The notes below the pieces were generated by a model, which had not been told where the DNA came from, did no database searches, and was given only the letters and a program-made list of their open reading frames with translations. Below, one piece after another: positions 11,001-61,066 of a DNA stretch of 64,000 nucleotides (its first letter is position 1; each line of letters starts with the position of its first letter). The translations under genes and the position numbers were made by a program. This DNA is from an uncultured virus (IMG/VR IMGVR_UViG_3300022660_000083) (lineage: Duplodnaviria > Heunggongvirae > Uroviricota > Caudoviricetes), in IMG/VR virus record IMGVR_UViG_3300022660_000083. One strand, written 5' to 3'.

Positions 11001-11690
11001 TATACATTAAGTCCTGTTGTGGGACAACAATATGTAGAAGTAATGATTAATGATGTATTAACCACTATTGAAAACACTACATTACGTACTAATTATAATG
11101 AACAAGGATGTTATGATGAAGACAAAGAAGTGTTTACTTATGTAAATTATCGTGTTTATTCTGAAATTTATGAATATGGTCATGATGAATATGAAACAAA
11201 TAAATATTATACTGATTATCATGTTGCAACTCAAGATTTAACTAATAATATTAGATTTAGTATTATTATTGATTATGAAGAAGGATGTACAATAGTAGAT
11301 GCGGTATATAATGTTTATGTAGAATTTACTTGTTATGCTTTACCAGAAGGAAAATCTTCTGATAATAGAAGTGATTTCTTATTATATAATCGTGCTGGTT
11401 TATTTGCATATTTTGATGAAGATAGAATATTAGAACATGGAACACTACAATCGAATATTTCTGGATGGTATGGCGTTTATGTAGCTTTATCTGAAGGTTA
11501 TACTTATTCATTTGAAGTTACCGATAGAGGAAAAACTACTTCATATACTGAAGGAGATGAATTCTTGATTGGTTCAAGTATTACAGCTCGTACTGTAAGC
11601 ATCCATATTACAATCACGAATGCTTCTATTGAAGATGAAGATTGGGGAGTTCATGTAAAAGATGAATCTTTTATCAAACCTACTGCATAA
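2046..11690 (+). CDS. Giant (3214 aa) secreted/surface protein: GLUG-like repeats, central helical region, C-terminal beta-sandwich domains
   Basis: N-terminal signal/TM; FSGEFDGDGHTVSN, repeated VGG(I/V)xG and NxGxI motifs; VQAED and VTAEDG motifs; RBS AGGAGG. Confidence 0.75.
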   Translation: MKKNLNLIKKITFGLLSLTICVFTFSIGTDDLVSSKNKIILSADTWKSELVEIKSYTDSNNIKFVDISELVELDKDGLVTAVKDPTTEIDANTKIIINDGLGIYYFSEICNEEFANGTANAYYQTYLSSKYILGANIDYEDASKTFKMLRPVGWKEGIPFSGEFDGDGHTVSNIFYRPFDNEQEVVNDYPGMVYLSWFSQNTGTIKNIGIINPNIIQYDIYDHAIFVSPFVGANDGIIENCYVQDLRGNESGISAEGGYEISMFVSFNNDKGIIRNCYTASNRISATSVTMSDSGHRHPFVAQNNNATGITNCYFDSEALTKYTTYDTALISGVTALTTAEFLDTAKFKYTDNSDKQIWFSNATYPTTFAAYLKITYPVLSGFAVDNDGYFVIEKTSQFIYMSELIDEYQIFREAKYLLANTVDLKTVKPNSYVFTQKVFSGTIKGGPKGNSNYNVTLADGSISQKNSILNLEINQGNSYQGYRCYGLFSVLNGTVENINIVNATITEYDIETVNMNEINTVGTVCGLMIGGNIKDVDVYSTISMEQEKDSPTFLGAQYVGGIAGTATAGKIEASTASGTIKASTYTPTSNSMAEELSHSIGGILGKALGNDGVSNCLNNISITGINYTSNPGNSIKQYLGGVIGSGHIKNTFELQNNANITVGSISTGTYYSLVYVGGIIGRVSNAEESNGVYNNNANIRYYVNDNNYKAYISGVMNVIDEEIAPYDTFNTTETYANIQNLINNQTPYEFTSLTSGGTLYIENYLSATKYPAKYQVITTINNGIDIRAAGLVYSYLTKINVVGAYNLNDHYEWDNGKLNKVENDPQFIDISMMDEFAPTFNADNMVTYLNRNLHLDTNYLHSTSDVFDINSTKLMSTINLERVYNYRNVNYITNKIVNSYMLQLSGCINGRNFNLKNIRNDGDIKVYFTENTYSNMTMNNGTYYDYFGDFKKLKVYGVMEEVSLNHTAKDIYNGGNITVSSDGTTNRYLSNFNLYIGGICYKNVGNDPAAEQELMIESGYVGSLHNSINNGEIRVTSGNILTSTQTQAGAFYGVSRIGGICAFNASTISSTFNLGNIYNINYIFSTDGTGGGYSANFEVETGGFCFGQQNEVYNAAGDYTRASIIDSANNGTIVSLNTRNSNVTWVNASGFVARNDRCEDGETVDNTETSKNPHEQKIEYSINYGDIYSYNSYANDNITGSSEPQSKAAGFVCLGACTIVDVINYGNIYCSAIAGGMYGIVYFDRMRNAGASQNSPIYIANSINYGKVDIISRTDTNRNALYTINKGANTLTLVNAHTTSANSTHYPVGALIGMLRSNNNQNDLYALNIKNLVNFYDSVDIIGRVYQMYQYPETQIRVDTLEYMATTKTADYSPAPFNTDRTNYNYGIKAYSKDTATGNPNLTNKWSKECNGGIFNESYTLRTPPAYVDENGNVVTEIALADKNNTDNFIADYIQFVPYSKVNDYLVQKIGLKDTVLKNAWDLAVNSTSVIKSIIEIKNKNNTGSLQDIYEELVENEEAKLISSKQEIIQIFANEIKKGSITSSDLNNIINILTNNGNDLSNLSNDSLNNIYSDLLLDSDLLNTQIGSENKTVLDVLYEYLVENKDSFVTAEGDTNDPINSILGNFADQASSDAEKQLVINIFSSLINDDDTLQNYLDSLSQAEKEELANRIYPYVMTNDEVIRAIGEEYYDSLNITTSDELNTLVTNLITARRNSNSTLTDYPITDEEYIDMYNSFYVENYTNAQVQTAINNLTNAQLRTFIDSINAGVSDTSSNLYQFMDSGRNNSTGIILPATSTNYVAVVNSTTGVYSSGSTAGTGEIYSGSYSTIASATPNNKYEVLIVEDDYYTTQNYGSTYNYWTYDNSTYRGQSNRWLPDNDTYYGILYSGQANTLNGGLTFISTGVYATRAQANNGGFGQPTRYNYSAIQVCTFIDYGSSAIAKNDGDLTKVALSQMLTYANNNQNTTYLQTYLYNMYVNSQTTTGKSEFLKLLFGDQTVSLNEALDYIQNEATNAVATDVENYANYILDNVSDTLSQGNIVKLFKGTNGSNYTNVLFEMIRAYDASNYELVKDLVDDLYELRTGLTNSQRTNINNNIVDILSDDSITNQDKLDVINYYSDDSTKEYAVSYLIKNGLLNDEQLSNTLLELLNSDITLLQNQSINQYLNDEIFSSVIAVLIKGDEDLFKQYTGLTSSTTIIEDLENLGIDSAIVTDNTGIYALASSHGILNGLFLPDNIELIKMDYYYEDDENNLVNDPTWRGGTTDNPNYYDENNTTCVNYKVYYEMKQLKKSIATIIFNMELVDETVDDNGEQLEYENVLTNNPETDYICNEKDQYGSLVNEVYFYVPINHNILSKDKIYINMILGSYELSYGATFDTDTDKLEITVPDTLSVGQKLSDTFVVQAEDDKVKTEYTLYIVITKASYLDPVNSVSANGANATYTEIDTTPVDSDVVTTDVIVTTDVLGYNGVLRVTYGTVNLINRSNLLQYVNVYKTEGTDIKAALENKELLILDENYYFNNVLNNGIVVIPNYDEDDTGFNSQTNGYDNGTVFFDLSIDNNMPGGTYLIEISLSKTTKYYVLFDKAKSTNSQLESITYNGQTFINSVDGTDNSASHAKHAYGTVLTESDLKSITEGKPNYLDEIVIAPLATYVIDSVTVTEDAGVKTYQIVYTVTAEDGVSESTFTHYISEDTYNTNIQKVYINGGIVINEEITKPDSGYVYTDSFAKDETPSYKFEYDLSGFYTTLNSEYFNVVFYDEAGVEIKDETTLELLNSYYSINIIEGVSFEVSFYQEAESLAYYFGLVYGNKVTFSNGNDISWNVKFDIVELIKLKNTNSYFDNVTFLSESVVSSIRTMITIEDISIEDYTKMLSDPTREIVSLPGQIHYNKYAIETNKQDAFYMIGLVNKTQLDYYMPTFDLPDGASVYRTETINGAIYKYVPYYIDNQQELTAFLISEDGNTILDSLGNQIAVTVNGNQIVYDGKTYTLSPVVGQQYVEVMINDVLTTIENTTLRTNYNEQGCYDEDKEVFTYVNYRVYSEIYEYGHDEYETNKYYTDYHVATQDLTNNIRFSIIIDYEEGCTIVDAVYNVYVEFTCYALPEGKSSDNRSDFLLYNRAGLFAYFDEDRILEHGTLQSNISGWYGVYVALSEGYTYSFEVTDRGKTTSYTEGDEFLIGSSITARTVSIHITITNASIEDEDWGVHVKDESFIKPTA

Positions 11691-13495: not shown

Positions 13496-13572
13496 GGTCT
13501 GTTGGAGAAGCGGCTTAACTCACATGCCTTTCACGCATGCACTCACGGGTTCGAATCCCGTACAGATCACCA
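13496..13572 (+). tRNA. tRNA-Glu (anticodon UUC)
   Basis: Acceptor GGTCTGT/ACAGATC, anticodon arm CATGC-CTTTCAC-GCATG, T-loop GGTTCGAATCC, encoded CCA. Confidence 0.97.
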
Positions 13573-13918: not shown

Positions 13919-14119
13919 ATGGAATTTAGCGAAAAGGTTTTATATGTTAGAGCAACATTGAAGCTATCACAAACTCAACTAGCTAAAGAGTTGCAAGTTG
14001 GTGTAGCAACAATCAATCGTTGGGAAACAAAGAAAACATTACCAAATAAAAGAGATGCGTATGCATTTGACTTATATTGCAAAAAACATCAAATTAGTTT
14101 TGATGGAGGTGCAAATTAA
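13919..14119 (+). CDS. XRE-family HTH regulator, probable R-M controller (C) protein
   Basis: LSQTQLAKELQVGVATINRWE helix-turn-helix; first gene of the MTase operon. Confidence 0.8.
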   Translation: MEFSEKVLYVRATLKLSQTQLAKELQVGVATINRWETKKTLPNKRDAYAFDLYCKKHQISFDGGAN

Positions 14120-15372
14120 TGAAAAAACTTACAGTTATTGATTTGTTTAGTGGTGCTGGAGGATTATCTGAAGGTTTTTACCAAACTGGACATTTTGATT
14201 TTTTGGCTCATGTTGAATGGGAAAAACCTATGGTAGAGACATTAAGAAATAATCTTGTCAAACGTTGGGGGTATGCTCCTGAGAGGGCAAAAAAATCTGT
14301 AATACAATTTGATATTCAAAAAACACAAGAATTACTTTGCGGAAATTGGTCTGAAGAAACTAGAAAAGAATATGCAAGTAATAATCATCCTATGGTCATG
14401 GAGCAAGGCATTGATGGTTTAGTTGATGAAAGAGGCGTTGATGTGATTATAGGTGGACCTCCGTGTCAAGCATATTCTATCGCAGGACGTGCTCAAGACC
14501 CTAACTCGATGAAGGATGATTACCGCAACTTCTTGTTTGAAAGCTTTGTGAAAGTCGTTAATCATTATAAGCCACAAGTCTTTGTATTTGAGAACGTACC
14601 TGGTATGTTAAGTGCAAAGCCTGGAGATAGATTAGTAATCGAGAGAGTATATGAGGCCTTTGAGGAAATTGGTTACACTATAAGAAATCCTCAAATAATG
14701 TCAAAATCAATTTATTCGTCTTCGGATTTTGCTGTTCCTCAAGAACGTCATAGGGTTATCATATTCGGTGTGAGAAAAGACTCAAATATTGAGCTTGAAG
14801 CATTATACTCAGCATTGGATGGTCAAAAATCCTCTTCCCCAAAGAAAACGGTTCGAGATGCGATTGGGCATATGCCAAAGTTCAAACCTCTAGACCAACC
14901 AAGAAAAGAAGGTAGAGGAAATGTATCTCATGAATTGATTGGTGATGTAGAAATTTCTCTTCACATCGCAAGATACCATAACAAGAGAGATATGGATGTT
15001 TTCTACCAATGGATAACTAACAATATGAACTATATTGATAATAACGAGAAATTGTTATTTTATAAGTCTGTAACAGGAAAAACATCTAACCATAATAAAT
15101 ATAGAAGCTTGGAATGGGATAAACCTTCTCCAACGATTGTATCTCACCTATATAAAGATGGATTGATGTTTATTCATCCAGATGTAGAGCAATTAAGGTC
15201 TATCACTATTCGTGAGGCTGCAATTTTACAAACATTCCCTATGGATTTTGAATTTGTAGGTTCTAGTGCATATTGTTTCAAAATGATAGGTAATGCAGTG
15301 CCTGTTTTATTTGCGAAAAATATTGCAGAAGCAGTTTATAAAGTAATGGAGGAAAGCAATGAGGCAGTTTAA
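14119..15372 (+). CDS. C5-cytosine DNA methyltransferase (M1)
   Basis: Motifs DLFSGAGG, GGPPCQ, ENVPG, QERHR, IGNAVP. Confidence 0.95.
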   Translation: MKKLTVIDLFSGAGGLSEGFYQTGHFDFLAHVEWEKPMVETLRNNLVKRWGYAPERAKKSVIQFDIQKTQELLCGNWSEETRKEYASNNHPMVMEQGIDGLVDERGVDVIIGGPPCQAYSIAGRAQDPNSMKDDYRNFLFESFVKVVNHYKPQVFVFENVPGMLSAKPGDRLVIERVYEAFEEIGYTIRNPQIMSKSIYSSSDFAVPQERHRVIIFGVRKDSNIELEALYSALDGQKSSSPKKTVRDAIGHMPKFKPLDQPRKEGRGNVSHELIGDVEISLHIARYHNKRDMDVFYQWITNNMNYIDNNEKLLFYKSVTGKTSNHNKYRSLEWDKPSPTIVSHLYKDGLMFIHPDVEQLRSITIREAAILQTFPMDFEFVGSSAYCFKMIGNAVPVLFAKNIAEAVYKVMEESNEAV

Positions 15373-16093
15373 TATTTTAGTGGCTTGTGAGGAAAGCCAA
15401 AGAGTTTGCATTGAGTTTAGGAAATTAGGGTTCAATGCGTTCAGTTGTGATTTGCTTCCTTGTAGCGGAGGACATCCCGAATGGCATTTCCAACAAGATG
15501 TTCTTCAAATTATAGAAAACAAAGGTGGCATACTTCAAAATGGACAAGAAATACGAATAGAAGGAAATTGGGATTTGATGGTTGCCCATCCGCCTTGCAC
15601 ATATTTAGCAGTTAGTGGTGCAAAATGGTATTATCATCCTGAAGATAAACATTTGCCAATCGACCAAAGAAGACCACATCCAAAATTCCCGAATCGAGCA
15701 CAAGACCGAGAAGATGGTGCGAATTTCTTTATGGCATTAGCAAACGCTGACATTCCTCGAATAGCCATAGAAAACCCCGTAGGTATTATGAATACTCGAT
15801 TTAGAAAACCTGATCAAGTTGTTCAACCTTTTTGGTTTGGAGATAGAGCATCAAAAATGACCTGCTTATGGTTGAAGAATTTGCCACCTCTTAAACCGAC
15901 GGAGATGGTTGAGCCTGGTGAATATATAGAATTTGGTAGTGGAAAAAGACTTCAAAAGTGGTACTCTGACGCTTTGACAAAAAGCAAGTCAGCTGAAGAA
16001 AGAAGAACGCTTAGAAGTAAGACTTTCCCTGGATTTGCAAGAGCAATCGCAGAACAATGGAGTGAGGTGTTAAAAAATGAAGATTTATCTTAG
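15359..16093 (+). CDS. Short phage-type C5-cytosine methyltransferase-like protein (M2 position)
   Basis: LVACEES motif-I variant, AHPPC catalytic motif, IENP; only 244 aa. Confidence 0.75.
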   Translation: MRQFNILVACEESQRVCIEFRKLGFNAFSCDLLPCSGGHPEWHFQQDVLQIIENKGGILQNGQEIRIEGNWDLMVAHPPCTYLAVSGAKWYYHPEDKHLPIDQRRPHPKFPNRAQDREDGANFFMALANADIPRIAIENPVGIMNTRFRKPDQVVQPFWFGDRASKMTCLWLKNLPPLKPTEMVEPGEYIEFGSGKRLQKWYSDALTKSKSAEERRTLRSKTFPGFARAIAEQWSEVLKNEDLS

Positions 16094-17990
16094 AAAAATA
16101 GATGCTCAATGCATTAATAAGCAGATTAGTTATCCAAAAGATATCTTAAGTGAATTTTTAGATGATAAAGCTAACCACGATAGCATCGAATGTGTTGGCA
16201 AAAACAGTGGACACAAAGAAACGGTAAGACTTCTGCTTGCAACTGACCCAAGATTTGATAACAGTATAAAGAAAGTTTTGGCAGCTGAAGGTGAATATGC
16301 TGAAGGCGATTTAATGGTGATGTATAAGTTACGTAACCGTTATCTTGTTGAGTTGGTTAAAAAAAGTGATGCAAGATATAATGCATTTTTAGTTTTGTTC
16401 GCTGAAAACGACAGACATCTTTTAGCTAGTCTTGATGATGTAGTAAATGATGATAAGGAAGATTTAAGCGTTCTTAATCATAATTTTTTCGGTATGCATA
16501 TAACACAAAGAAACAGCGCTGTTTCTCGCGGTGAAATTAGTATCGGATGGAGTTTGTTGGGTGATTTAAGCGATATTGAAACAAAAGAAGAACTTGCTAA
16601 TAGATTTGACGTAGCCTTTCCTGACAAAAAGCCTAGAAGTAAAGCACAAGATTTATCTCAAGTATGGACTTTCATAAACACGATGACCATTGGAGATTAT
16701 GTGGTATTTAGTGATGGTACAAACGCACATATTGGTGTTATTAAGTCCGACTACTTTTATGAGGTTGATGAGAGTGTACGTGATATTGATTATGTAAACA
16801 ACCGAAAGGTTGAATGGTTAAAGACGGTATCAAGAGATGTTTTGCCAAAGTTATTAAAGAGTGCATTATCTGCTACAAGAAGCGTGTTCTCGTTAAATAA
16901 TTATAAATCCATTATTCTTGAACTTTTAGATAAAGAGGTTCTAGATTATGATGAAGAAGAAATTGATGCAGTCGAGGAGGATGTTATGGAAGAACAGAAG
17001 CCATATATAGAATTGAAATTTACTACAAATATTAGTTGTGATTTTGAACGCAACAGAATAGTATTTGGTGCTCCAGGTACAGGTAAGAGCTTCCAACTTG
17101 AAGAAGATAGAGAAAAAATCATCGAAATGGGTGGTGGATATGAGCGAGTAACATTCCACCCCGAATATACATATTCAAGTTTTGTTGGTTGCTATAAGCC
17201 GGTATCTACAAAAGGAAAAATTGAATATAAATACGTGCCTGGTCCTTTCATGCGAGTATTAGTCAATGCTCTTCGTAGCGGTTTAACTGACAATCCAAAA
17301 CCTTACCTTCTTGTCATAGAGGAAATCAATCGTGCTAAAGTGGCAGCTGTATTCGGTGAAGTTTTCCAATTGTTAGATAGAGATAGTAAAGGTACAAGCG
17401 ATTATGAAATCAACGCAAGTGAAGATGTGAAGCAATATCTTTCTGACGAACTTGGTGGTAGTCTTGAAAGCTTCGATAAACTTCGTATTCCTAACAATAT
17501 GTTCATTTGGGCTTCAATGAATAGTGCGGATCAAGGGGTATTCCCTATGGACACTGCGTTCAAGCGTAGATGGAGTTTTGAATATAAAGGAATTGATGAA
17601 AACGAAGATAAGGTTGGCGGAAATGTAGTTCTTGGAGAGGGCGATTACGCATTTGAAGTAAATTGGAATACTCTTAGAAAAGCAATTAACTATGTTCTTG
17701 CTCACACTTATCATATCAATGAAGATAAACTTATGGGGCCTTTCTTTGTTAACGAAGATGTATTTGCTTTCGACGAAGATGGTATGATGAAGAACCCCGA
17801 AAAGTTTAAAAAAGTATTTAAGAGCAAGGTTATCATGTATCTTTATGAAGATGCTGCTAAACAACAAAAGCATAAGTTGTTCTGTGGTTGTGATAGCACT
17901 AAGTATTCTTCCATTTGTGATGCGTTTGATAAAATAGGTATAGATATTTTTGGGGCAGATTTCAAAGAAACCTATAATAATTTGAGGTAA
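16077..17990 (+). CDS. McrB-like AAA+ GTPase subunit (LlaJI-like system)
   Basis: Walker A GAPGTGKS, TFHPEYTY, Walker B IEEINR, NxxD motif MNSAD, MDTAFKRRW. Confidence 0.9.
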   Translation: MKIYLRKIDAQCINKQISYPKDILSEFLDDKANHDSIECVGKNSGHKETVRLLLATDPRFDNSIKKVLAAEGEYAEGDLMVMYKLRNRYLVELVKKSDARYNAFLVLFAENDRHLLASLDDVVNDDKEDLSVLNHNFFGMHITQRNSAVSRGEISIGWSLLGDLSDIETKEELANRFDVAFPDKKPRSKAQDLSQVWTFINTMTIGDYVVFSDGTNAHIGVIKSDYFYEVDESVRDIDYVNNRKVEWLKTVSRDVLPKLLKSALSATRSVFSLNNYKSIILELLDKEVLDYDEEEIDAVEEDVMEEQKPYIELKFTTNISCDFERNRIVFGAPGTGKSFQLEEDREKIIEMGGGYERVTFHPEYTYSSFVGCYKPVSTKGKIEYKYVPGPFMRVLVNALRSGLTDNPKPYLLVIEEINRAKVAAVFGEVFQLLDRDSKGTSDYEINASEDVKQYLSDELGGSLESFDKLRIPNNMFIWASMNSADQGVFPMDTAFKRRWSFEYKGIDENEDKVGGNVVLGEGDYAFEVNWNTLRKAINYVLAHTYHINEDKLMGPFFVNEDVFAFDEDGMMKNPEKFKKVFKSKVIMYLYEDAAKQQKHKLFCGCDSTKYSSICDAFDKIGIDIFGADFKETYNNLR

Positions 17991-17994
17991 GCTT

Positions 17995-19461
17995 ATGGAT
18001 TTTATTTCGGTTTACATTAGAGAGCAAAAGAGATATACAAAAAATGAATTGCTCAAAATGTTCCGTTTTAATGAAAATGAAATCGAAAAGTTCCTAAAAG
18101 AATTAAAATCTTACGGCATCTTGAAAGCTGTAAAGAATGAACCTGGACAAAAAGACTTGACGGAATTAAACGAAGAAGACATTGAAATTACGGACGATAC
18201 ATTGGCAAACGATGAGTTGTATTACGTCTTCACTTTTGTTGGGGTAATTACTTTCGGTAATAGGGTCTTAAAGTGCTATCCAAAATATATTAGTTCATTA
18301 GAGCCCTACGAAGAAGTAAAGCAAGTTTTGAAAGTCTTAAATAGATACTCGGCCTCAGAACAGATGATAAAAATGTTCAATGGGGATGAGAAAAAGGGCT
18401 CATTCAATCTTCTTTCGGTAATACTGTACTTGATGCAAGACTACTATGAAAATGGGATTTATTCCAATTCAGAGGATGTAGTCGAAATTAATGGCGAAGG
18501 TAATATTCTGTGGAATCAAACGATTAGTGATGGTTTTGCTATCATAAATGAAAATGAACCTTACTATGTTGAATTGTTTACGCAACATTCAATTGATGAT
18601 GAATATGATTACTTTACACGTCTTCATAAGGTTATATTAACTGAATGCTCTAAACAACTTGATGAAGCAGGGTTATTAGGATTGTTTGAATTCGATTCAT
18701 TAGAATTAAGCGAAGAAACATTAGATGACTTTGGAGAAACGGAATACATACTCTATAAACTTCAAAGTGAACTCAATGTGCAATATAATACTCGTAGACA
18801 ACTTTTGCTTAAGTCTATATATGCGTATGTTTCGCAACAAAAAACACTTACAGACCAAAGCTGTATCAGCTTGTTTGGTACTACAAGCTTCAATCTTGTA
18901 TGGGAAAAAGTATGTGCAGAAGTATTCGACAATAAACTTTCTACACCTATTGGTAAGATTAAACTTCCTGTACCTTTGTGTCCTAACTACAAGAAGGAAG
19001 TCAAGTTAATAGATATTATAGAAAAGCCTCAATGGGTAGGAAACGGATCTAATGGTTCATTCGTTAAAGAAAGCCAAGAAACTCTTACACCTGACCTTAT
19101 TGGTGTTTATAATGTTGACGGTGAGTGGTATTTTGTGATTTATGATGCGAAATATTACTGTATTCAATTAGAAGAAAATAAAGTTTTGCGTGGACAACCA
19201 GGTATAGGGGATGTCACGAAGCAATATCTTTATCAACGTGCATATGGCAAATTCATTGCAGACCATAGCATCAATCGTATTAGAAATTGCTTCTTAATGC
19301 CTACAGAAAAAGATGAAGTTGTGGAGTTGGGATACGCTCGACTTGAAATGCTTGAATCTTTAGGACTTGAGAACATAGCAATTAGATTAATGCCTGCAAA
19401 ATATATGTACCATTGCTACTTGGAAAATAAACGCTTAACCTTTAAAGATGCGTTGTTGTGA
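17995..19461 (+). CDS. LlaJI-family / McrC-like restriction endonuclease subunit
   Basis: FNLVWEKVC, LTPD...YDAKYY PD-(D/E)xK motif, PGIGDVTKQYLY; follows the McrB-like gene. Confidence 0.85.
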   Translation: MDFISVYIREQKRYTKNELLKMFRFNENEIEKFLKELKSYGILKAVKNEPGQKDLTELNEEDIEITDDTLANDELYYVFTFVGVITFGNRVLKCYPKYISSLEPYEEVKQVLKVLNRYSASEQMIKMFNGDEKKGSFNLLSVILYLMQDYYENGIYSNSEDVVEINGEGNILWNQTISDGFAIINENEPYYVELFTQHSIDDEYDYFTRLHKVILTECSKQLDEAGLLGLFEFDSLELSEETLDDFGETEYILYKLQSELNVQYNTRRQLLLKSIYAYVSQQKTLTDQSCISLFGTTSFNLVWEKVCAEVFDNKLSTPIGKIKLPVPLCPNYKKEVKLIDIIEKPQWVGNGSNGSFVKESQETLTPDLIGVYNVDGEWYFVIYDAKYYCIQLEENKVLRGQPGIGDVTKQYLYQRAYGKFIADHSINRIRNCFLMPTEKDEVVELGYARLEMLESLGLENIAIRLMPAKYMYHCYLENKRLTFKDALL

Positions 19462-19473
19462 GGAGGATAAAAT

Positions 19474-20349
19474 ATGGCAAGAGCAAAGAAAATTAAAAGT
19501 CCCACTCAATTAGAACTTATTGAACCTACCTTCAATGCAATAGTGGAACTTGGTGGTTCTGCAACCATTGAAGAAATTAGAGATAAAGTTATTGAGATGC
19601 TTCAATTGTCGGATGAAATCGTTGATGAACCTCATACGGGAAAGGCCACTCAACAAACGGAGTTGGAGTATCAATTAGCATGGGCAAGAACTAGATTAAA
19701 GAGCTATGGTGCAATCACAAATAGCTCACGCGGAGTATGGATTATCACCCCTGAATTTAGTGATAAAAAAGTTTCAAAAGCCGAAGTGGTAGAACATATA
19801 AATGCTACCAAGGCCAAAGCAAAAAATAAAACTACAACAAATCAAGATACCGTGGTTTCTGATGTAGTAGTTGAGGAATTGCCCGAAGAGTTAGAACCGT
19901 GGAAAATTGAACTTGCGGAAACTCTCCACAATATGAACCCATATGCATTTGAAAAATTAGCCATGTTGCTTTTGAGAGAATGCGGATTTAGTCAAGTTTC
20001 CGTAACTAAAAAGTCCGGTGATGGCGGAATCGATGGCACAGGCAAACTCAAAATAAATGGTATATTTAGCTTTAATGTTGCATTCCAATGCAAGCGTTAT
20101 AAAGGTAGTGTAACTGCTGGTGATATTCGTGATTTCCGTGGTTCTTTAACCACCGATATTGAAAAAGGTATCTTTATTACCACGGGCACTTTTACTCGTG
20201 ACGCTCGTAAAGAAGCATCTAATGCGGGTAAGCAGCAAATTGACCTTATTGATGGCGAAGAGTTTATTAATAAGTTGATTGAATACCGTTTAGGAGTAAA
20301 AGAAAAGCTTGTTTATGAAGTAGATAAAACTTTCTTTGACACGATTTAA
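19474..20349 (+). CDS. mrr: Mrr-family (type IV) restriction endonuclease with N-terminal winged helix
   Basis: LAWARTRLK...SRGVW N-domain; FEKL, SGDGGIDG, QCKRY, GIFITT, LIDG. Confidence 0.9.
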   Translation: MARAKKIKSPTQLELIEPTFNAIVELGGSATIEEIRDKVIEMLQLSDEIVDEPHTGKATQQTELEYQLAWARTRLKSYGAITNSSRGVWIITPEFSDKKVSKAEVVEHINATKAKAKNKTTTNQDTVVSDVVVEELPEELEPWKIELAETLHNMNPYAFEKLAMLLLRECGFSQVSVTKKSGDGGIDGTGKLKINGIFSFNVAFQCKRYKGSVTAGDIRDFRGSLTTDIEKGIFITTGTFTRDARKEASNAGKQQIDLIDGEEFINKLIEYRLGVKEKLVYEVDKTFFDTI

Positions 20350-37067: not shown

Positions 37068-37091
37068 ACAAAAGTTAGCGAGGTGATACCT

Positions 37092-37409
37092 ATGAATGAA
37101 TTAGTAATAGACGTTGGAGTCTATACACTCCTACATATCAACTTGTCGGAAATGGATTTTACGGGTATCAAGGAAGTCGTATTTACAGTTAAAAACTTTT
37201 CTTTCGTGGATGCTCCCATAGTCATTGAAAGAGTGTTCACGGAGGCAGGTTTTTATGAGGTGCTTATCACACCTGAAGAAAGCGTAATGCTAGCCAAAGG
37301 TGCGGAGTACGATTTCAATCAAATATTGACGGATGGGACTAGGCTGAAGCTCACCGACAATGGAAAAATCATATTGCGAAAAAGCGTAGGTGATGACATT
37401 GGCGGATAG
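37092..37409 (+). CDS. Hypothetical beta-rich protein, possible BppU-N-like adaptor
   Basis: Alternating beta-strand pattern, YD...DG motif; precedes fibre-like genes. Confidence 0.45.
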   Translation: MNELVIDVGVYTLLHINLSEMDFTGIKEVVFTVKNFSFVDAPIVIERVFTEAGFYEVLITPEESVMLAKGAEYDFNQILTDGTRLKLTDNGKIILRKSVGDDIGG

Positions 37410-37797
37410 TTATAACAAAAGACGAACCACACAACGCATCAACATACCACCTCCTAAAAAGATAGAGGTGGAGTGTTCGGGTACTTGCCCTGATATCACA
37501 ATCAGCCATGTGTATCATTTGGCAAAGATGCGTGAGTTCGATATTAGACTTGATACGAAAGTTCCAAAAGCGTTATCCATTCTTCCACAAGTAACAAATA
37601 ACAATGTATCAACGGTTCAAGCACGAGAAGAAGGCAGAATTTATGTTGAGGTCGGTGAGACAGCATCTTTTGCCACGCTTGAGCAGTTAAAAGGACTAAA
37701 CACTAAGACGGTGTTTGTTGATGAACTTACCGACACAAAAATACAAGGCTTGAGCAATGAAGATATTATTATGCTCAGAAAAGGAGACAAAAAATAA
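37390..37797 (+). CDS. Hypothetical protein of the fibre cassette
   Basis: ORF overlaps both neighbours; start codon uncertain. Confidence 0.6.
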   Translation: MMTLADSYNKRRTTQRINIPPPKKIEVECSGTCPDITISHVYHLAKMREFDIRLDTKVPKALSILPQVTNNNVSTVQAREEGRIYVEVGETASFATLEQLKGLNTKTVFVDELTDTKIQGLSNEDIIMLRKGDKK

Positions 37798-38717
37798 TGG
37801 CACAGAAAAGAACACAATATGTAAAGACGGCAGACGGTCTTGAAAAGCAGCTCATTGCATCGGCAGCGGATATCGTTGAGATTGATGCGATTGACGGTTT
37901 GTCTGCAACTAATGTACAGGATGCACTTGTAGCAATTAAAGACATCGCAGATAACGGTGGTGTTACGGGTGTCAAAGGTAATGCGGAAACTACCTATCGC
38001 AAGGGTGATGTTAATATTACTCCTGCGAACATCGGTCTTGGCAATGTAACAAACGATGCCCAAGTTAAAAGAAGTGAGATGGGCGTGGCAGGTGGTGTTG
38101 CTACTCTTGGTACGGATGGCAAAGTTCCTTCAACTCAGCTACCTTCGTATGTTGACGATGTTTTGGAATTTACCAACAAGGCAGCCTTCCCTGCGACAGG
38201 TGAAACGGGCAAAATCTATGTAGCAAAAGATACCAACCTTACTTATCGTTGGAGTGGTTCTAGCTATGTTGAGATTTCAGTTTCGCTTGCACTTGGTGAA
38301 ACATCTTCAACCGCTTATGCAGGTGATAAAGGTAAAGCTCTTGCTGATAGATTGACTACTGCCGAAGGAAATATCACATCTAATGATACCGATATTGCAG
38401 CCCTTCAAGGTAGAGCAACTAAACTTGAAGATGGTACTACTCCTGCAGGAAAGGCTACCAAACTTGCAACGGCTCGCAAGATTTCCCTTACGGGTGATGC
38501 AACGGGCAATACAACCTTTGATGGTTCGGCAGATAAAAGCATTGCAGTAACCCTTGCAAATACGGGAGTTACGGCAGGTACTTATTCAGCCGTAGCAGTT
38601 GATGCCAAAGGTCGAGTAACCGCAGGTAATCAAATCGTTGAATGGGGTACGAGTGGACAGACTGAACCTAGTGCAAACTTAGCTGTTGGTGGTTTATTCT
38701 TTATGCTCGTGGAATAA
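37797..38717 (+). CDS. Phage fibre-like protein
   Basis: GLGNVTN, GVATLGTDGKVPSTQLPSYVDDV, ATKLATARKISLTGD, GVTAGTYSAVAVDAKGRVTAG fibre motifs; short coiled coil. Confidence 0.75.
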   Translation: MAQKRTQYVKTADGLEKQLIASAADIVEIDAIDGLSATNVQDALVAIKDIADNGGVTGVKGNAETTYRKGDVNITPANIGLGNVTNDAQVKRSEMGVAGGVATLGTDGKVPSTQLPSYVDDVLEFTNKAAFPATGETGKIYVAKDTNLTYRWSGSSYVEISVSLALGETSSTAYAGDKGKALADRLTTAEGNITSNDTDIAALQGRATKLEDGTTPAGKATKLATARKISLTGDATGNTTFDGSADKSIAVTLANTGVTAGTYSAVAVDAKGRVTAGNQIVEWGTSGQTEPSANLAVGGLFFMLVE

Positions 38718-38727
38718 GGGGGCTTTT

Positions 38728-39297
38728 ATGTCTACTTATACACCAAAAAGGAAAACCTCGACAGGGGTTGAGGAAGTTGCCTTCCCTATAAGCTCAGTGG
38801 AGGGACTTCAAGAAAATCTTGATACCCTTCACAACAAAACGATAGCAATGCCAATGATTAGAGTTGGTAGTGTTACGGATATAAACGGAACAATGATAAT
38901 CAACGAAGATAATCCTTTGGTTATTTCTGTTGAGATTATTGATGGTAAGTTGCAAGTTGGTGATGAGGTTCAAATCTGCACAAGACAATTATTTACTTAC
39001 GATGCAGGTAGACGTCGCAAGATGCGATTACGTAAGCAGTGGTATGTACCTATTACCGAGTCAAATGTAAACGAAAGGTTTATTTTTGTATCTATAGCAG
39101 AGTCTGCAACAATGCATGGTCAAAGGCTTTTTAGAACGGATAGTGCCTCACTTAGCACCAAAACACTGTCACCGTTATATGTGCGAGTGCGAAGACCTGT
39201 ATTTAATGATGGTACAGAGGTCGATGGTTTGTTCTCTAACATTGCAACGTTGTGGAAAAGATACAACCGTGGCACAAGCGAAATTTATATTAAATAA
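38728..39297 (+). CDS. Hypothetical protein, possible distal fibre or receptor-binding subunit
   Basis: N-terminus resembles that of the upstream fibre (KTxxG[LV]E); ISSVEGLQENLD repeat-like motif. Confidence 0.55.
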   Translation: MSTYTPKRKTSTGVEEVAFPISSVEGLQENLDTLHNKTIAMPMIRVGSVTDINGTMIINEDNPLVISVEIIDGKLQVGDEVQICTRQLFTYDAGRRRKMRLRKQWYVPITESNVNERFIFVSIAESATMHGQRLFRTDSASLSTKTLSPLYVRVRRPVFNDGTEVDGLFSNIATLWKRYNRGTSEIYIK

Positions 39298-39300
39298 CTC

Positions 39301-39410
39301 TTCAAGGGGGAGCAGGCTTGATAACTCTGTCGGCGTGTCTGACGGAGTAGGTGTTAACTCGCTGCGAAAGCGGAGAGTAGGTTCTAGCGTCCCCTTTGAA
39401 TTATTTTTTT
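39301..39410 (+). ncRNA. Candidate structured element: three-way junction closed by an 11-bp stem and followed by a T-tract
   Basis: Outer stem 39301-11/39390-400, hairpins 39324-48 and 39357-78 (GAAA loop). Confidence 0.55.
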
Positions 39411-39423
39411 ACAAGGAGGCAAT

Positions 39424-40713
39424 ATGAAAACAACTACGGAAATGACACTTGTTGAAATTGGCAAGTTGATACCTTACATAAACAACGCAAGAACGCATAG
39501 CGATGAGCAAATCACAAAACTTCGTTCAAGCCTTCGTGAGTTCGGTTTTATCAACCCTGTCATTATCGACAAGGAATATAACATAATTGCAGGTCACGGA
39601 CGAGTGAAAGCGGCAAAGGCAGAAGGCATAAAAGAAGTACCTTGTGTTTTAGTCGACCACTTGACCGAGGCACAAAAGAAAGCCTACATCATAGCTGACA
39701 ACCGAATGGCACTTGATGCAGGATGGGATGAAGAAATTTTGAAAGTTGAGTTAGAGGCACTTGAGGGTGAGGCGTTTGACCTTTCTCTTACAGGCTTTGA
39801 CGAAGACGAACTTTCTGACCTTTTCAAAGAAGATGAGGCAGAAGTAGAAGACGATGACTATGACCTTTCTGCTGCACTTGAAAAAGCTGCGTTTGTAGAG
39901 CGTAGTGACAGGTGGATAGTTGGAAGGCACGTCCTTTATTGTGGTGATGCTACAAGCAAAGAAGATGTAGATGCACTTATGGACGGAAAGAAAGCGAACC
40001 TTGTGCTTACAGATCCGCCTTACGGTGTTTCTTTCAAATCGTCTAGTGGACTTACCATTAAAAATGATTCTATTAAAAACGAGGAGTTCTATCAGTTCTT
40101 GCTTGCAGCCTTTAACAATATGGTTGCTCATTGCGAAAGTGGTGCGGCAGGATATGTATTCCACGCAGATACCGAGGGGCTTAATTTTAGACAAGCATTC
40201 GTTGATGCAGGTTTCCACTTGGCAGGTTGTTGCATTTGGGTAAAAGACTCTCTTGTATTAGGTAGGTCTGATTATCAATGGCAACACGAACCTGTGCTTT
40301 ATGGATTTCTTCAAAACGGAAAACACAGGTGGTTCTCTGATAGAAAGCAGACTACCATTTGGAACTTTAAGAAGCCTAAGCGTAATGAAAACCATCCAAC
40401 AAGCAAGCCACTTGATTTGCTTTCATACCCACTCCAAAACAGTTCTCAAGAGAATGCCATTGTTGTGGATACCTTCGGTGGCAGTGGTTCAACGCTTATG
40501 GCTTGTGAGCTTTCAAATCGCATCTGTTACACGATGGAACTTGATGAAAAATACGCATCGGTTATCCTTAGACGATATGTAGAAAACACGGGTGATGCCG
40601 AGGGTGTTTATTGTATCAGGAACGGTGAGCGAGTGAACTATCTTGACGTAGTCAAGGAAGTCGAAAAAAGATGTGAAAATTCTGATAATTCTAGCTCAAA
40701 TGACTTGATATAA
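39424..40713 (+). CDS. ParB-like N-domain fused to an N4/N6 DNA methyltransferase
   Basis: NNARTH, IIAGHGR, ADNR; TDPPY, HPTSKP, DTFGGSGST. Confidence 0.92.
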   Translation: MKTTTEMTLVEIGKLIPYINNARTHSDEQITKLRSSLREFGFINPVIIDKEYNIIAGHGRVKAAKAEGIKEVPCVLVDHLTEAQKKAYIIADNRMALDAGWDEEILKVELEALEGEAFDLSLTGFDEDELSDLFKEDEAEVEDDDYDLSAALEKAAFVERSDRWIVGRHVLYCGDATSKEDVDALMDGKKANLVLTDPPYGVSFKSSSGLTIKNDSIKNEEFYQFLLAAFNNMVAHCESGAAGYVFHADTEGLNFRQAFVDAGFHLAGCCIWVKDSLVLGRSDYQWQHEPVLYGFLQNGKHRWFSDRKQTTIWNFKKPKRNENHPTSKPLDLLSYPLQNSSQENAIVVDTFGGSGSTLMACELSNRICYTMELDEKYASVILRRYVENTGDAEGVYCIRNGERVNYLDVVKEVEKRCENSDNSSSNDLI

Positions 40714-41375: not shown

Positions 41376-41406
41376 GAGAAAGTCGGCTAAAAGGTCGGCT
41401 TTTTCT
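41376..41406 (+). terminator. Intrinsic terminator
   Basis: AAAGTCGGCT/GGTCGGCTTT stem then T-run. Confidence 0.6.
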
Positions 41407-57359: not shown

Positions 57360-58451
57360 ATGCCATTAAGAATAATTAGAAATGACTTGTTACAGATGGA
57401 GGTTGATGCCATTGTTAATCCTACCGATAGTAAATTATCGGGTTCGGGTAGTATTGATTTAAGAATCCATCAAGCAGGAAAAGAAGAATTAAAAAAAGAA
57501 CTACTTAGCATTGGTAAATGTGACATAGGTGATGCCATATTAACTAACGCATACAATATGTCATGCAGATATATCATTCACACAGTAGGTCCGATATGGA
57601 ACGGTGATTCTAAAGCATTTAAAGTCCTTGAAAGTTGTTATAGGAATTGTTTGGAGTTGGCAATATCACAAGACATAGAAAGCATTGCGTTCCCTTTGAT
57701 AGCCACAGGTTCATTTGGGTTTCCTACAGACAAAGCTATTCAAATTGCTATCAATACCATTAATTCGTTTTTACTTGACTACGATTTAGACGTATATTTA
57801 GTTGTTTATAACAGTGAGGCGTTTGGTATTTCCAAAAAGCTAGTAGAGGATGTTAAATCTTACATAGAAGACGATGTTGAAGAAGACGAAAGAATAAAGT
57901 TTATTCAAGAATTGTTATCTTACTATGAATTTAATGAAACTCCACTTGCTAAAAAAATAGTTGGAAAGATAAAAGTAAGTGATGCCATTGAAACTTCATT
58001 TAAGTGTTGTGCTCCAATGGCGGCGGATTTTTGCGAAAGTATAGAGGAAGGTAGCTTAGAGGATCTAATTCCTGAGCTTGATAAAATTAAATGGACAAAT
58101 GAGGACTCCTTTACATATAAGTTGTTCAAGATAATTGATGACAACAATCTTAAAGACTCAGATGTATATAACGCAGCTGGTATTAGTAAAATGGTGTTCT
58201 CTAACATTAGAAAAGGCATAATTCCTAAAAAGAAAACCGTATTCCAACTTTGCTTGACTCTTCCAATAGGAATTACACAAGCTACCGATTTGTTGGCTAG
58301 TGCAGGATATACTTTCGTATTAAGCGATAAATTTGAGAAGACCATAAAGAAAATTATTGAGGCGAAAAACACGAAGAAACTTACCCGAATAGATGTCATT
58401 GATTTGATACTTTATGAGTTAGGATTACCCGTATTTAACAACGCTTATTAA
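57360..58451 (+). CDS. Macrodomain protein with C-terminal HTH-like region
   Basis: DAIVNP, GSGSID..IH, IIHTVGP, SIAFPLIATGSFGFP; VYNAAGISKMVFSNIR. Confidence 0.88.
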   Translation: MPLRIIRNDLLQMEVDAIVNPTDSKLSGSGSIDLRIHQAGKEELKKELLSIGKCDIGDAILTNAYNMSCRYIIHTVGPIWNGDSKAFKVLESCYRNCLELAISQDIESIAFPLIATGSFGFPTDKAIQIAINTINSFLLDYDLDVYLVVYNSEAFGISKKLVEDVKSYIEDDVEEDERIKFIQELLSYYEFNETPLAKKIVGKIKVSDAIETSFKCCAPMAADFCESIEEGSLEDLIPELDKIKWTNEDSFTYKLFKIIDDNNLKDSDVYNAAGISKMVFSNIRKGIIPKKKTVFQLCLTLPIGITQATDLLASAGYTFVLSDKFEKTIKKIIEAKNTKKLTRIDVIDLILYELGLPVFNNAY

Positions 58452-58530
58452 AAGTAAATTTAGACTTTACCATTTAATTGAAATAAAATGATATACTCTC
58501 CTTGTAAAACAAACGAGGAGGGTATTTTTT

Positions 58531-59196
58531 ATGACCAGAACAATTAAAGTAACAGGAAAAAGTAATGTCCAAGCAACCCCAGACTATACAAGAATTAGTC
58601 TTTCTATTTCAGACACGTTGGAAGAATACGATTCATGTTTGGCAAAATCCGTTGAGGATATGAACATTATCGTAGAGTGCATCAAGGCATTTGGTTTTGA
58701 GAGAAAAGAACTAAAGACATCGGGTTTTGAAATAAATAGAAAGACCGAGGGCTACCGTGACAAAAACAATGATTGGAAATATCGTTTTATTGGGTATGAA
58801 TACACGCAAAATCTCAATTTCACTTTCAAGAACGATAACCAAAGATTAGGACAAATTCTCTATGCATTGGCTCACTTGTCTATCATCCCTGAAATCAATA
58901 TCTCTTATTTTTGTAGTGATGTAGAAACAATCAAGAATCAACTGTTAGAACTTGCAATAAAAGATGCCAAGAAAAAGGCAGAAATCTTAACAAATGCATC
59001 AGGAGTAAAGTTGTGTGAAATTATCGACATTGACTACTCTTGGATAAATGTTTCGTTTGAAACTGATGACATGAAATTTTGCAAGCCAATGATGTTTGAA
59101 GAATGTTGTGATGCTGCTCCGTCATATAATGTTGATTTTGAACCCGATGATGTTTCGACAAGTGATAGTGTAAGAATAACATTTAGAATCGAGTAA
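58531..59196 (+). CDS. SIMPL (DUF541)-domain protein
   Basis: RTIKVTG...PD, LAIKDAKKKAE.L..ASGVKL, V.ITF.I end; no signal peptide. Confidence 0.8.
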   Translation: MTRTIKVTGKSNVQATPDYTRISLSISDTLEEYDSCLAKSVEDMNIIVECIKAFGFERKELKTSGFEINRKTEGYRDKNNDWKYRFIGYEYTQNLNFTFKNDNQRLGQILYALAHLSIIPEINISYFCSDVETIKNQLLELAIKDAKKKAEILTNASGVKLCEIIDIDYSWINVSFETDDMKFCKPMMFEECCDAAPSYNVDFEPDDVSTSDSVRITFRIE

Positions 59197-59207
59197 AAGG
59201 TGTAAAA

Positions 59208-59471
59208 ATGGATAAAAAGAAAATCGAAGAAATAGTAACAAAAGTGGTAGCATATTTAGAAACATTGCCTCTAGGAACAGAAATTTCTACATGGCAAGCA
59301 ACAAAAGAAGGTTATGGAATCAAAGATTTAGAAGATTGTGATTTCTTTGGAATAGATAAGCAAGTAAGAGTGGCTGCAAAAAAGGTTGGATTGAAATTGG
59401 ACAGTTCAAAGTACAACAATTGTGAGGTCGGATTGCCTTTCAACATTCCGTTTGTAATAAGAAAGAAGTAG
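59208..59471 (+). CDS. Hypothetical protein
   Basis: 87-aa ORF in the operon, GLPFN..F motif. Confidence 0.65.
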   Translation: MDKKKIEEIVTKVVAYLETLPLGTEISTWQATKEGYGIKDLEDCDFFGIDKQVRVAAKKVGLKLDSSKYNNCEVGLPFNIPFVIRKK

Positions 59472-59482
59472 GAGGTACACGA

Positions 59483-61066
59483 ATGATTGGTGCAATTATT
59501 GGTGATATCGTTGGCTCAAGATTTGAGTTTAACAATATAAAAACGAAGAAATTTTATTTATTTGATAAGAAATGCTCTGTGACGGATGATTCTGTTATGA
59601 GCGTGGCAGTGGCGGATATGTGTTTGAATGGTTATGTTCCAAACAATAAGAAAATGATTATTCAGACATTCAAAAAATGGGGACAAAAATATCCTTACGC
59701 AGGTTATGGTTCTCGTTTTTATCATTGGGTTTTATCGGATGAATCTATGCCATACAACTCTTGTGGTAATGGCAGTGCGATGAGGATTTCTGCCATTGGT
59801 TTCTTTGCAAACACTGCGGAGGAAGTAGAACTTTATTCAAAAGCAGTAACTGAAGTAACGCACAACCATCCCGAAGGAATAAAAGGTGCTTATGTTACGT
59901 CTATGTGCATTTATCTTGCTAGAAAAGGTGCGTCGAAAAAAGAGATAAAAGAGTTTGTAGAAAAGTATTATGATATTGATTTTGACTATGAAACATTGAG
60001 AAGAACATATAAGCACGAGGCTGAAATTTGCCAAAATACTGTACCTCAAGCAATTTATTGTTTCTTGATTAGTAGCGGTTTTGAAGATTGTCTTAGAACT
60101 ACGATTTCTATTGGTGGTGATTGCGATACTACGGCTGCTATTTCGTGTGCGATTGCAGAGGCATATTACGGTATCCCTAGCGAAATAATCGAACAAGTTA
60201 TGGAATACATACCTGATGACATGAAAGAAATCATACTGAAATTTGACCGTCAAATGCTAGAATCCTCAATTAGTAGATATGGTAGAATTTTGAAATTTAT
60301 TAAGCCATTGGAAGAGTATCCTGATAAACTTGCAAGATGGCAAGAGGGTGAAAGTAAAAAGGATAAAGACGGTAAAATCGTTTTAACTTTGGGCTTTCCA
60401 ATCTACGAGTCTGATGTTGTTGAATTTATGGAGGCAGTTCGTTCGTTCTTTGTGTATGACTACGTCAAAGTAATTGAATCATATGGAATCAAATATGAAA
60501 ATATTGATATTCACGCACTTGATTTAGCTAAGTATGATGACAAGTTGGTTTTGGCAATGCTTACTGCAATTATTCGCTCTGATAGAGTTAACGAAGGCTT
60601 GATTATGGATATGATAAAAAATGGTTCTATCTTAAAGTTGCTTTTAAGATTGCAAGATTTTGATGAACCATTGCTAAAAGAAGATATAATTACCAAAATT
60701 GATTATTCGTATAGTTGTTTTGGTGACTTTTCAAAGAATGAAGGTTTCGTAATCGATATTCTTTCAAAAGAAAAAGTTAGAATCGAATACAGTTCTCATA
60801 ATATGGACGGTATAAAACCTGTTGTGGTTCTTGACGAGTCAGATTCCAAGACTTTGATAACCAAACTTTACAATTTGAACATTTTAGAGTGGCTAGAGGA
60901 CTACGAACCAAAAGATATGATAGTTCTTGATGGCGAGTCTTGGCGAATGGAAATCGACACTTATAATTTAGGACATATCCATAAAGGTGGAAATAACGCC
61001 TTCCCACATAATTGGCATTCGTTTAGAAACTTTAGAAGATGGATTTTAAGTAAAATGAGAGTTTGA
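59483..61066 (+). CDS. ADP-ribosylglycohydrolase (ARH/DraG family) with two extra C-terminal domains
   Basis: GAIIGD..GS..EF, TDDS, GNGSAMR, THNHPEG, GGDCDT; DUF6508-like IRSDRVNEG; LDGESW..GNNAFP. Confidence 0.9.
   Translation: MIGAIIGDIVGSRFEFNNIKTKKFYLFDKKCSVTDDSVMSVAVADMCLNGYVPNNKKMIIQTFKKWGQKYPYAGYGSRFYHWVLSDESMPYNSCGNGSAMRISAIGFFANTAEEVELYSKAVTEVTHNHPEGIKGAYVTSMCIYLARKGASKKEIKEFVEKYYDIDFDYETLRRTYKHEAEICQNTVPQAIYCFLISSGFEDCLRTTISIGGDCDTTAAISCAIAEAYYGIPSEIIEQVMEYIPDDMKEIILKFDRQMLESSISRYGRILKFIKPLEEYPDKLARWQEGESKKDKDGKIVLTLGFPIYESDVVEFMEAVRSFFVYDYVKVIESYGIKYENIDIHALDLAKYDDKLVLAMLTAIIRSDRVNEGLIMDMIKNGSILKLLLRLQDFDEPLLKEDIITKIDYSYSCFGDFSKNEGFVIDILSKEKVRIEYSSHNMDGIKPVVVLDESDSKTLITKLYNLNILEWLEDYEPKDMIVLDGESWRMEIDTYNLGHIHKGGNNAFPHNWHSFRNFRRWILSKMRV

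Follow-up and report, generated by a model that had tools for sequence, protein, structure and literature searches.

An uncatalogued three-fold RNA three-way junction directly behind the gene of a basic Ig-like C-terminal domain of fibre-like phage proteins: a candidate scaffold or cap for trimeric fibres

Introduction

The phi29 pRNA, a phage RNA with a three-way junction, serves virion assembly, and autogenous control through structured operators is common in phages. In the type III toxin-antitoxin systems (ToxIN, CptIN, and TenpIN), as with the AbiF ncRNA, a protein gene lies beside an RNA with repeated protein-binding units. ToxIN forms 3:3 triangular complexes, and the repeats of the type III systems are pseudoknots located upstream of the RNase toxin (ToxN, CptN, or TenpN). 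Fibre trimers decide which hosts a phage infects. The genes of the Tfa proteins are usually found directly behind the fibre gene, and a three-fold partner at the distal C-terminal end of the fibre is known from Tfa of Mu, gp25 of Pam3, and T4 gp38 as well as from the intramolecular chaperones of T5, K1F, and GA-1. PMC9608196 describes trimeric chaperones of the Tfa type binding to the distal end of the fibre, and transient caps are proposed in PMC10579305; in the parts of both papers considered here, the fibre assembly helpers are all proteins.

Here, we describe an RNA family of gut phages together with a candidate fibre-tip binding domain, both of them uncatalogued. Both were found in a stretch of 64,000 nucleotides from an uncultured virus of the Caudoviricetes (IMGVR_UViG_3300022660_000083), which is referred to below, at its full length, as the window; loci from other sequences carry numbers preceded by L. 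The new RNA motif and its gene linkage are established, and from them we infer a mechanism, discussed below, for the assembly or capping of fibre trimers.

Genomic setting

The window contains a prophage. The order of its packaging region is HNH, small terminase, C5 methyltransferase, a MetK-like gene, four extra genes (encoding proteins of 108, 135, 306, and 189 aa), the element, a ParB-methyltransferase, DUF4314, and large terminase. The genes around the element are as follows.

37083..37797, + strand: 108-aa and 135-aa fibre cassette genes, with no family match; probable anchor and adaptor
37797..38717, + strand: 306-aa fibre or head-decoration-like protein, third gene of the cassette (PHROG head decoration, E 5e-30; PHROG tail fibre, E 2e-18)
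38728..39297, + strand: 189-aa protein, a short N-terminal segment followed by a basic Ig-like C-terminal domain; proposed partner of the RNA
38848-39294, + strand: the basic Ig-like C-terminal domain, residues 41-189
39424..40713, + strand: ParB-N6/N4 methyltransferase, the downstream neighbour, outside the module of the RNA

The four-gene fibre cassette (37083-39423) is an insertion in the packaging operon, between MetK and the methyltransferase, and is a long way from the tail genes. In locus L147, the same cassette precedes lysis genes, indicating that it moves as a unit. Other, unrelated inserts found in the same packaging region (L134, 1286-1672; L055, upstream of the methyltransferase) suggest a hotspot for cargo. 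A single-sequence model of the 306-aa protein had a pLDDT of 34. The relative PV036447, with a matching gene order, is filed as an Anaeroplasmataceae phage of the “Ca. Heliusvirales”, and the window is tentatively linked through gene order and protein similarity to PV036447 to this group, in which methyltransferase and SAM synthetase are common according to the part of PMC11283538 considered here.

Elsewhere in the window, we noted a restriction island (14119-20349) composed of a C5 methyltransferase, an AAA (McrB-like) protein, a LlaJI-type endonuclease, and Mrr, as well as an ORF of 3214 aa (2046-11690) that matched nothing in Pfam at E 1e-4. Macro-domain, SIMPL, and ADP-ribosylglycohydrolase/DUF6508 genes (57360-61066), possibly ADP-ribose counter-defence cargo, separate the tail genes from a serine recombinase. 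A tRNA gene located 3' of CTP synthase (13496-13569) is a possible edge of the integrated region, and a terminator-like hairpin (41376-41405) within the late region immediately precedes the gene of the large terminase.

Structure of the element

The element occupies the gap between the 189-aa gene and the methyltransferase and is made up of the following parts.

39301..39400, + strand: whole element, a three-fold pseudo-symmetric RNA three-way junction, recognized by sequence, fold, and covariation
39301..39313, + strand: 5' strand of helix P1, beginning 3 nt past the stop of the 189-aa gene and ending in repeat module 1
39314..39323, + strand: junction linker 1, 10 nt
39324..39333 with 39339..39348, + strand: P2 hairpin, 10 pairs and a 5-nt loop
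39349..39356, + strand: junction linker 2, 8 nt
39357..39365 with 39370..39378, + strand: P3 hairpin, with a GAAA tetraloop
39379..39386, + strand: junction linker 3, 8 nt
39387..39400, + strand: 3' strand of P1, with G39389 bulged
39401..39410, + strand: U-rich tract 3' of P1, the probable 3' end through intrinsic termination
39413..39419, + strand: Shine-Dalgarno sequence of the ParB-methyltransferase gene, outside the structure

The original prediction, made from the letters of the window, had described three helices with two hairpins, alike linkers, a GAAA loop, a T-tract, and a ribosome binding site, and all of them were located where it had placed them. The pseudo-three-fold symmetry that it had proposed could even be extended: the end of P1 is a third copy of the four-pair module present in both hairpins, which makes the symmetry fully three-fold, and the motif GAGY / AG-led linker / A / RCTC occurs in three copies in the element. 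The self-similarity of the three units was 31, a value that none of 200 shuffles reached (mean, 24.9; maximum, 29). Along similar lines, the folding z-score of the element was -3.38, and none of 200 shuffles equalled its fold. The folding energy was -44.1 kcal/mol for the plus strand versus -25.3 kcal/mol for the minus strand, and the GC content was 54% versus 37% in the window. In the minimum-energy fold of the single window sequence, part of linker 1 pairs with linker 3, unlike in the alignment consensus, where every linker is unpaired. The only ORF across the element is a 103-aa frame that overlaps both neighbouring genes. Stop-codon readthrough was considered and rejected, given that an in-frame stop follows soon after in the window and that one of the subtypes described below (subtype B) often has a double stop.

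A function at the RNA level had been predicted from the G-U pairs and the GNRA loop. Throughout 27 RNAs, we counted 63 G-U pairs versus 4 A-C mismatches (21 versus 3 in nine representatives), and 16 of the 27 had GNRA or UNCG loops. The excess of G-U over A-C, together with these loops, agrees with the prediction and indicates that the molecule is RNA, read from the coding strand. The 10 nt located 3' of P1 hold 4 to 9 T in all of the 27 RNAs counted. One RNA run (5% of words) provided seven contigs, none of which spanned the element.

With Rfam 15 at the gathering threshold, the window yielded only a tRNA elsewhere, and the region 39150-39550 had no match up to E 10. Six homologues (L104, L115, L116, L132, L135, and L138) had Rfam matches far below the gathering score only, and the element can be regarded, as predicted, as an undescribed structured RNA. 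Neither the window nor the six homologues matched the models of the SAM riboswitches (SAM-I to SAM-VI and SMK), and there was no Rfam ribozyme match that would point to the self-cleaving three-way-junction ribozymes (hammerhead and kin). A terminator scan did not pick up the element as a simple terminator. Strings of the element were absent from the part of the PMC10690425 and PMC8040213 supplements (candidate structured RNAs of Fremin et al., 2021 and 2023) covered by a text search, and literature searches, with most subscription papers outside their scope, showed neither this RNA nor a fibre chaperone made of RNA. Given that the Fremin and bioRxiv data were covered in part, the motif may exist as an unnamed candidate in PMC10690425, PMC8040213, or bioRxiv 10.64898/2026.10.21.760802.

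Relatives and covariation

We analyzed 28 distinct RNAs belonging to ca. five lineages, namely, subtype A (which includes the window), subtype B, L118, L147, and L149. Because a whole-family MAFFT alignment misplaced the subtypes and L149, covariation was counted per subtype. Within subtype A (10 sequences), 13 of the 32 pairs had changed on both sides (4/13 in P1, 5/10 in P2, and 4/9 in P3), and 94% of the cells were paired (96.9% in P1). None of 500 shuffles had a pairing as high, and slid controls remained at or below 49%, bearing in mind that relatedness alone can beat shuffles. RNAalifold, unprompted, recovered the same junction from the alignment. The 15 close sequences of subtype B were 99.5% paired, with just 2 of 25 pairs changed on both sides. 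Together, the covariation, the RNAalifold result, and the pairing in subtype B indicate that the homologues keep the entire junction. Homologues with the outer stem only would have spoken against the prediction, as would a match to a known family.

The G and C closing the junction were invariant, and the last linker base was A in 28 of 30 modules (10 representatives), values that have to be read knowing that the descriptor itself required some of these bases. The identity among the copies within a molecule was 10.9/13 in subtype A and 10.8/13 in subtype B, versus 8.0/13 across subtypes; from one subtype to the other, the copies have changed in concert. The three copies of L118, L147, and L149 (7.3 to 8.3 of 13), each of which is a lineage of a single sequence, are without such concerted change.

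A model built from subtype A alone (R1) matched at the expected place in L118 (E 7.5e-5), in six subtype B loci (E 0.002 to 0.07), and in L147 (E 0.52), while L149 was missed both by R1 and by the first descriptor. We also used a motif-plus-helix score trained without L147 and L149 and a background of 1.09 Mb. L147 scored 50.6, exceeding all of this background; the score of L149 (36.0) was the best of its own locus and fell at the expected place, and it was equalled ca. 32 times in the background. In both of them, the three-way junction is not the minimum-energy fold. P2 and P3 of L147 (5555-5590) are near-identical tandem copies, a hint that the arms originate by duplication. In L149, a stretch located 3' of P1 (5508-5585) could base-pair with linker 1 and with the beginning of P2; the result would be a pseudoknot or another fold, not seen in the other lineages.

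A first DNA pattern retrieved 15 viral loci, one of which was the twin of the window, and none of the other 14 reached a strong descriptor score. The reverse search with the subtype A pattern, of a kind that detects close variants only, gave 13 viral matches, comprising six loci with the domain and seven coding repeats without the fold; the sole INPHARED match was a domain locus as well.

Linkage to the upstream gene

Searches with the 189-aa family provided 43 loci (L096-L138), three of which (L123, L133, and L137) stop within the gene and were therefore not counted. In the remaining 40, the junction was found right after the stop (39 by descriptor; L134, which ends inside the RNA, was counted through R1). 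L024, L139, L147, and L149 also carry it, so that the RNA was directly 3' of the domain gene in 44/44 loci with DNA behind the gene, a count that is heavily redundant (ca. five lineages), includes two weaker cases that are the most distant ones (L147 and L149), and covers the genomic context of a minority of the 258 domain clusters described below. Searching with the methyltransferase, we obtained 80 viral loci, 14 with the four-gene cassette and 66 without it. None of the 66 cassette-less loci had the domain, a strong junction match, or an R1 match. Among them, MetK lies at ≤60 nt from the methyltransferase start in 52, another gene or a gap precedes the methyltransferase in 9, and 5 have no upstream DNA. 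The identity of the RNA tracked that of the domain (rho, 0.91) more than that of the methyltransferase (rho, 0.42), both values coming from 55 non-independent pairs and the methyltransferase N-terminus being near saturation. The linkage to the gene that starts at 38728, raised in the original prediction, is borne out by the two counts (44/44 and 0/66). The element belongs to the upstream 189-aa gene, not to the downstream methyltransferase.

The anchor of the junction lies 15 nt past the stop in 24 of 28 RNAs (16, 16, 18, and 21 nt in the others), and the distance to the next start varies from 30 to 47 nt (26 measured). B. subtilis terminators also sit a few nucleotides past stop codons, according to the part of PMC7858274 considered here, which weakens the argument from the stop-to-junction spacing. 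The cassette of L147, where the domain forms the end of a 549-aa protein, precedes a short ORF that reads as holin-like, followed by an endolysin. L149 lacks the other cassette genes, and its domain is the terminal part of a 700-aa collagen-like tail protein. From L149, the single case and the weakest match, we would argue that it is the domain, and not the complete cassette, that the RNA accompanies.

The C-terminal domain

Residues 41-189 were modelled as a beta-sandwich (pLDDT, 87) whose fold matches were generic Ig-like only (best VIA Z, 6.7; best viral Foldseek E, 7e-4), with no Foldseek match against the PDB at E 0.001. Generic Ig-like matches of a predicted model are no proof of a new fold. 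By sequence, the domain was without a Pfam or PHROG family, a PDB sequence search gave nothing better than E 0.12, and the ESM Atlas had no usable match. A trimer prediction for the 189-aa protein scored 0.28 versus a mark of 0.42 and weighs neither way.

A profile search detected 258 domain clusters at 50% identity, and the statistics on distant homologues come from the matches listed, 150 of these 258 clusters. Among the matches listed, 107 of 143 proteins were longer than 300 aa, and the domain was at ≤5 residues from the C-terminus in 136 of 142; there was one domain per chain in 230/230 proteins matched. Also among the matches listed, the domain was net positive in 120/133 (median, +5), the N-terminal parts were net negative in 101/102, and positions R45, K/R100, R153, R155, and R156 were basic in at least 95%. 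The single cysteine, Cys84 (window 38977-38979), is kept in 99% of the distant homologues listed and adjoins the conserved Gln82. Host proteins of the domain bear BspA-type LRR, collagen-like, or YadA-head segments. Collagen-like repeats (7/143 hosts among the matches listed) and the YadA head (1/36 scanned) are trimeric folds. Domain identity across the lineages was 33 to 53%, and genome searches with the domain profile (ca. 1,400 genome slots, overlapping) found no carriers beyond the starting genomes. The conserved Arg/Lys patch could serve host teichoic acid binding instead of RNA.

Proposed role and alternatives

The computational results are that three equivalent modules form a conserved three-way junction on the coding strand and that this junction is tightly linked to an unnamed basic Ig-like domain that is single and C-terminal in fibre-like proteins. 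Repeated sites for the upstream protein, or for a trimer, were among the functions first suggested for the element and are now the leading hypothesis; from its sequence, P1 with the T-tract as a terminator is a plausible part of the picture. We propose, with a probability of about 0.42, that the RNA ends the fibre mRNA and that its three arms bind three tip domains, scaffolding or capping the trimeric fibre. Transcripts would partly end at P1 and the U-tract, and trimming may release a stable RNA of ca. 100 nt. Each RNA module would bind one domain via the conserved Arg/Lys patch, giving three proteins per RNA, and the three chains would be brought into register from the C-terminus, or the finished tip would be capped. 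Tfa proteins and intramolecular chaperones, themselves trimers acting at the distal C-terminal end, do a job of this kind. Afterwards, the RNA would be either released or retained on the particle; its retention on the virion as a fibre-tip cap, taken on its own, seems doubtful. We put forward, tentatively, that a gut-phage fibre family may have replaced a protein trimerization chaperone by an RNA, with a junction that would grip three C-terminal domains, template the trimer, and perhaps stay as a tip cap. If true, this would be a new way of building a protein oligomer in bacteria, in which the symmetry of an RNA matches that of the fibre; the domain would be portable, ending hundreds of different fibre-like proteins, and the RNA would possibly be a component of the tailed virion.

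All of the linkage and charge evidence is also compatible with the main rival, feedback, in which surplus assembled fibre trimer would bind the junction, stabilize P1, and alter termination or mRNA stability. The RNA would then be a sensor of finished trimers, limiting fibre or downstream expression. The U-rich tract found 3' of P1 in 27/27 RNAs fits such a role, as do the marginal junction folds of L147 and L149, which a ligand could tip, and the possible pairing of linker 1 with sequence further downstream in L149. However, the downstream genes vary (the methyltransferase, a short holin-like ORF before an endolysin, or a structural gene), the ribosome binding site is outside the fold, an operator located 3' of a stop codon cannot block the initiation of its own gene, and no alternative fold conserved across lineages was seen, so that we regard feedback as unlikely though by no means far-fetched. 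It is improbable that the element is an ornate intrinsic terminator or 3' stabilizer that arose by local duplication and travels as a passenger of the fibre cassette, without a protein partner. The strong P1, the U-tract, and the stop-proximal position are indeed typical of Bacillota terminators, and the near-duplicate P2 and P3 of L147 would agree with duplication. Nevertheless, a terminator has no need of the inner arms, whereas here the pairs of P2 and P3 covary; the length and the end bases of the linkers are preserved in all three copies in lineages whose domains are only 33 to 53% identical; and the terminator scan does not pick up the window element.

A self-contained fold, AU-rich flanks, and stable tetraloops are what could be expected of an independent small RNA that would be released by processing from the fibre mRNA, at its 3' end, and would act on a host factor, for instance, as a decoy for a symmetric host or defence protein. 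Its chances appear slim, given that the element was never found apart from the domain gene in the reverse searches (close variants only). The original prediction had also contemplated SAM sensing or control of the methyltransferase, and a SAM-sensing or other riboswitch could take its ligand from the nearby MetK-like gene, since MetK-like and methyltransferase genes flank the cassette and the element has a terminator-like tail. This possibility, which we now consider very unlikely, does not agree with the lack of a match to the Rfam SAM families, the absence of the element from the 66 cassette-less methyltransferase loci (including the 52 with MetK close to the methyltransferase start), the correlation with methyltransferase identity, which is lower than that with domain identity, or the unrelated genes that the RNA precedes in L147 and L149. 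The element does lie at the right-hand border of a cassette that some relatives have and others lack, as would a DNA-level signal (a single-stranded junction or recombination site) for cassette swapping. Still, the ratio of G-U (G-T at the DNA level) to A-C, the RNA tetraloops, and the strand asymmetry of folding all point to RNA, and there is a single copy per window with no left-edge partner; a recombination signal, another of the functions initially suggested, is thus hardly credible. Even if the role were merely regulatory, an uncatalogued RNA family and an uncatalogued candidate binding domain would remain.

Comparison with known systems

The proposed scaffold or cap would place a three-fold partner at the distal C-terminal fibre end, likewise the site of action of the Tfa-type and intramolecular chaperones of the phages named at the outset. 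Like the Tfa genes, this RNA is found directly behind the fibre gene (44/44 loci). However, the Tfa and intramolecular chaperones are proteins (with a helical trimerization domain), whereas the element is an untranslated RNA, and, unlike in the Tfa systems, the proposed partner on the fibre side is an unnamed Ig-like domain whose sequence has no match in Pfam, PHROG, or the PDB. The phi29 pRNA is not symmetric, is encoded by a gene of its own, and assembles into a ring on the packaging motor, while the element is three-fold, lies behind a fibre gene, and has no Rfam match. Compared with the type III toxin-antitoxin RNAs, the three modules here form one junction, located downstream of a fibre domain without a toxin family match. 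Finally, the element shares with the intrinsic terminators of Bacillota both a GC-rich stem a few nucleotides past the stop and a U-tract, but where the loop of an intrinsic terminator has 3 to 8 nt, P1 encloses a two-hairpin junction of 73 nt that is under selection.
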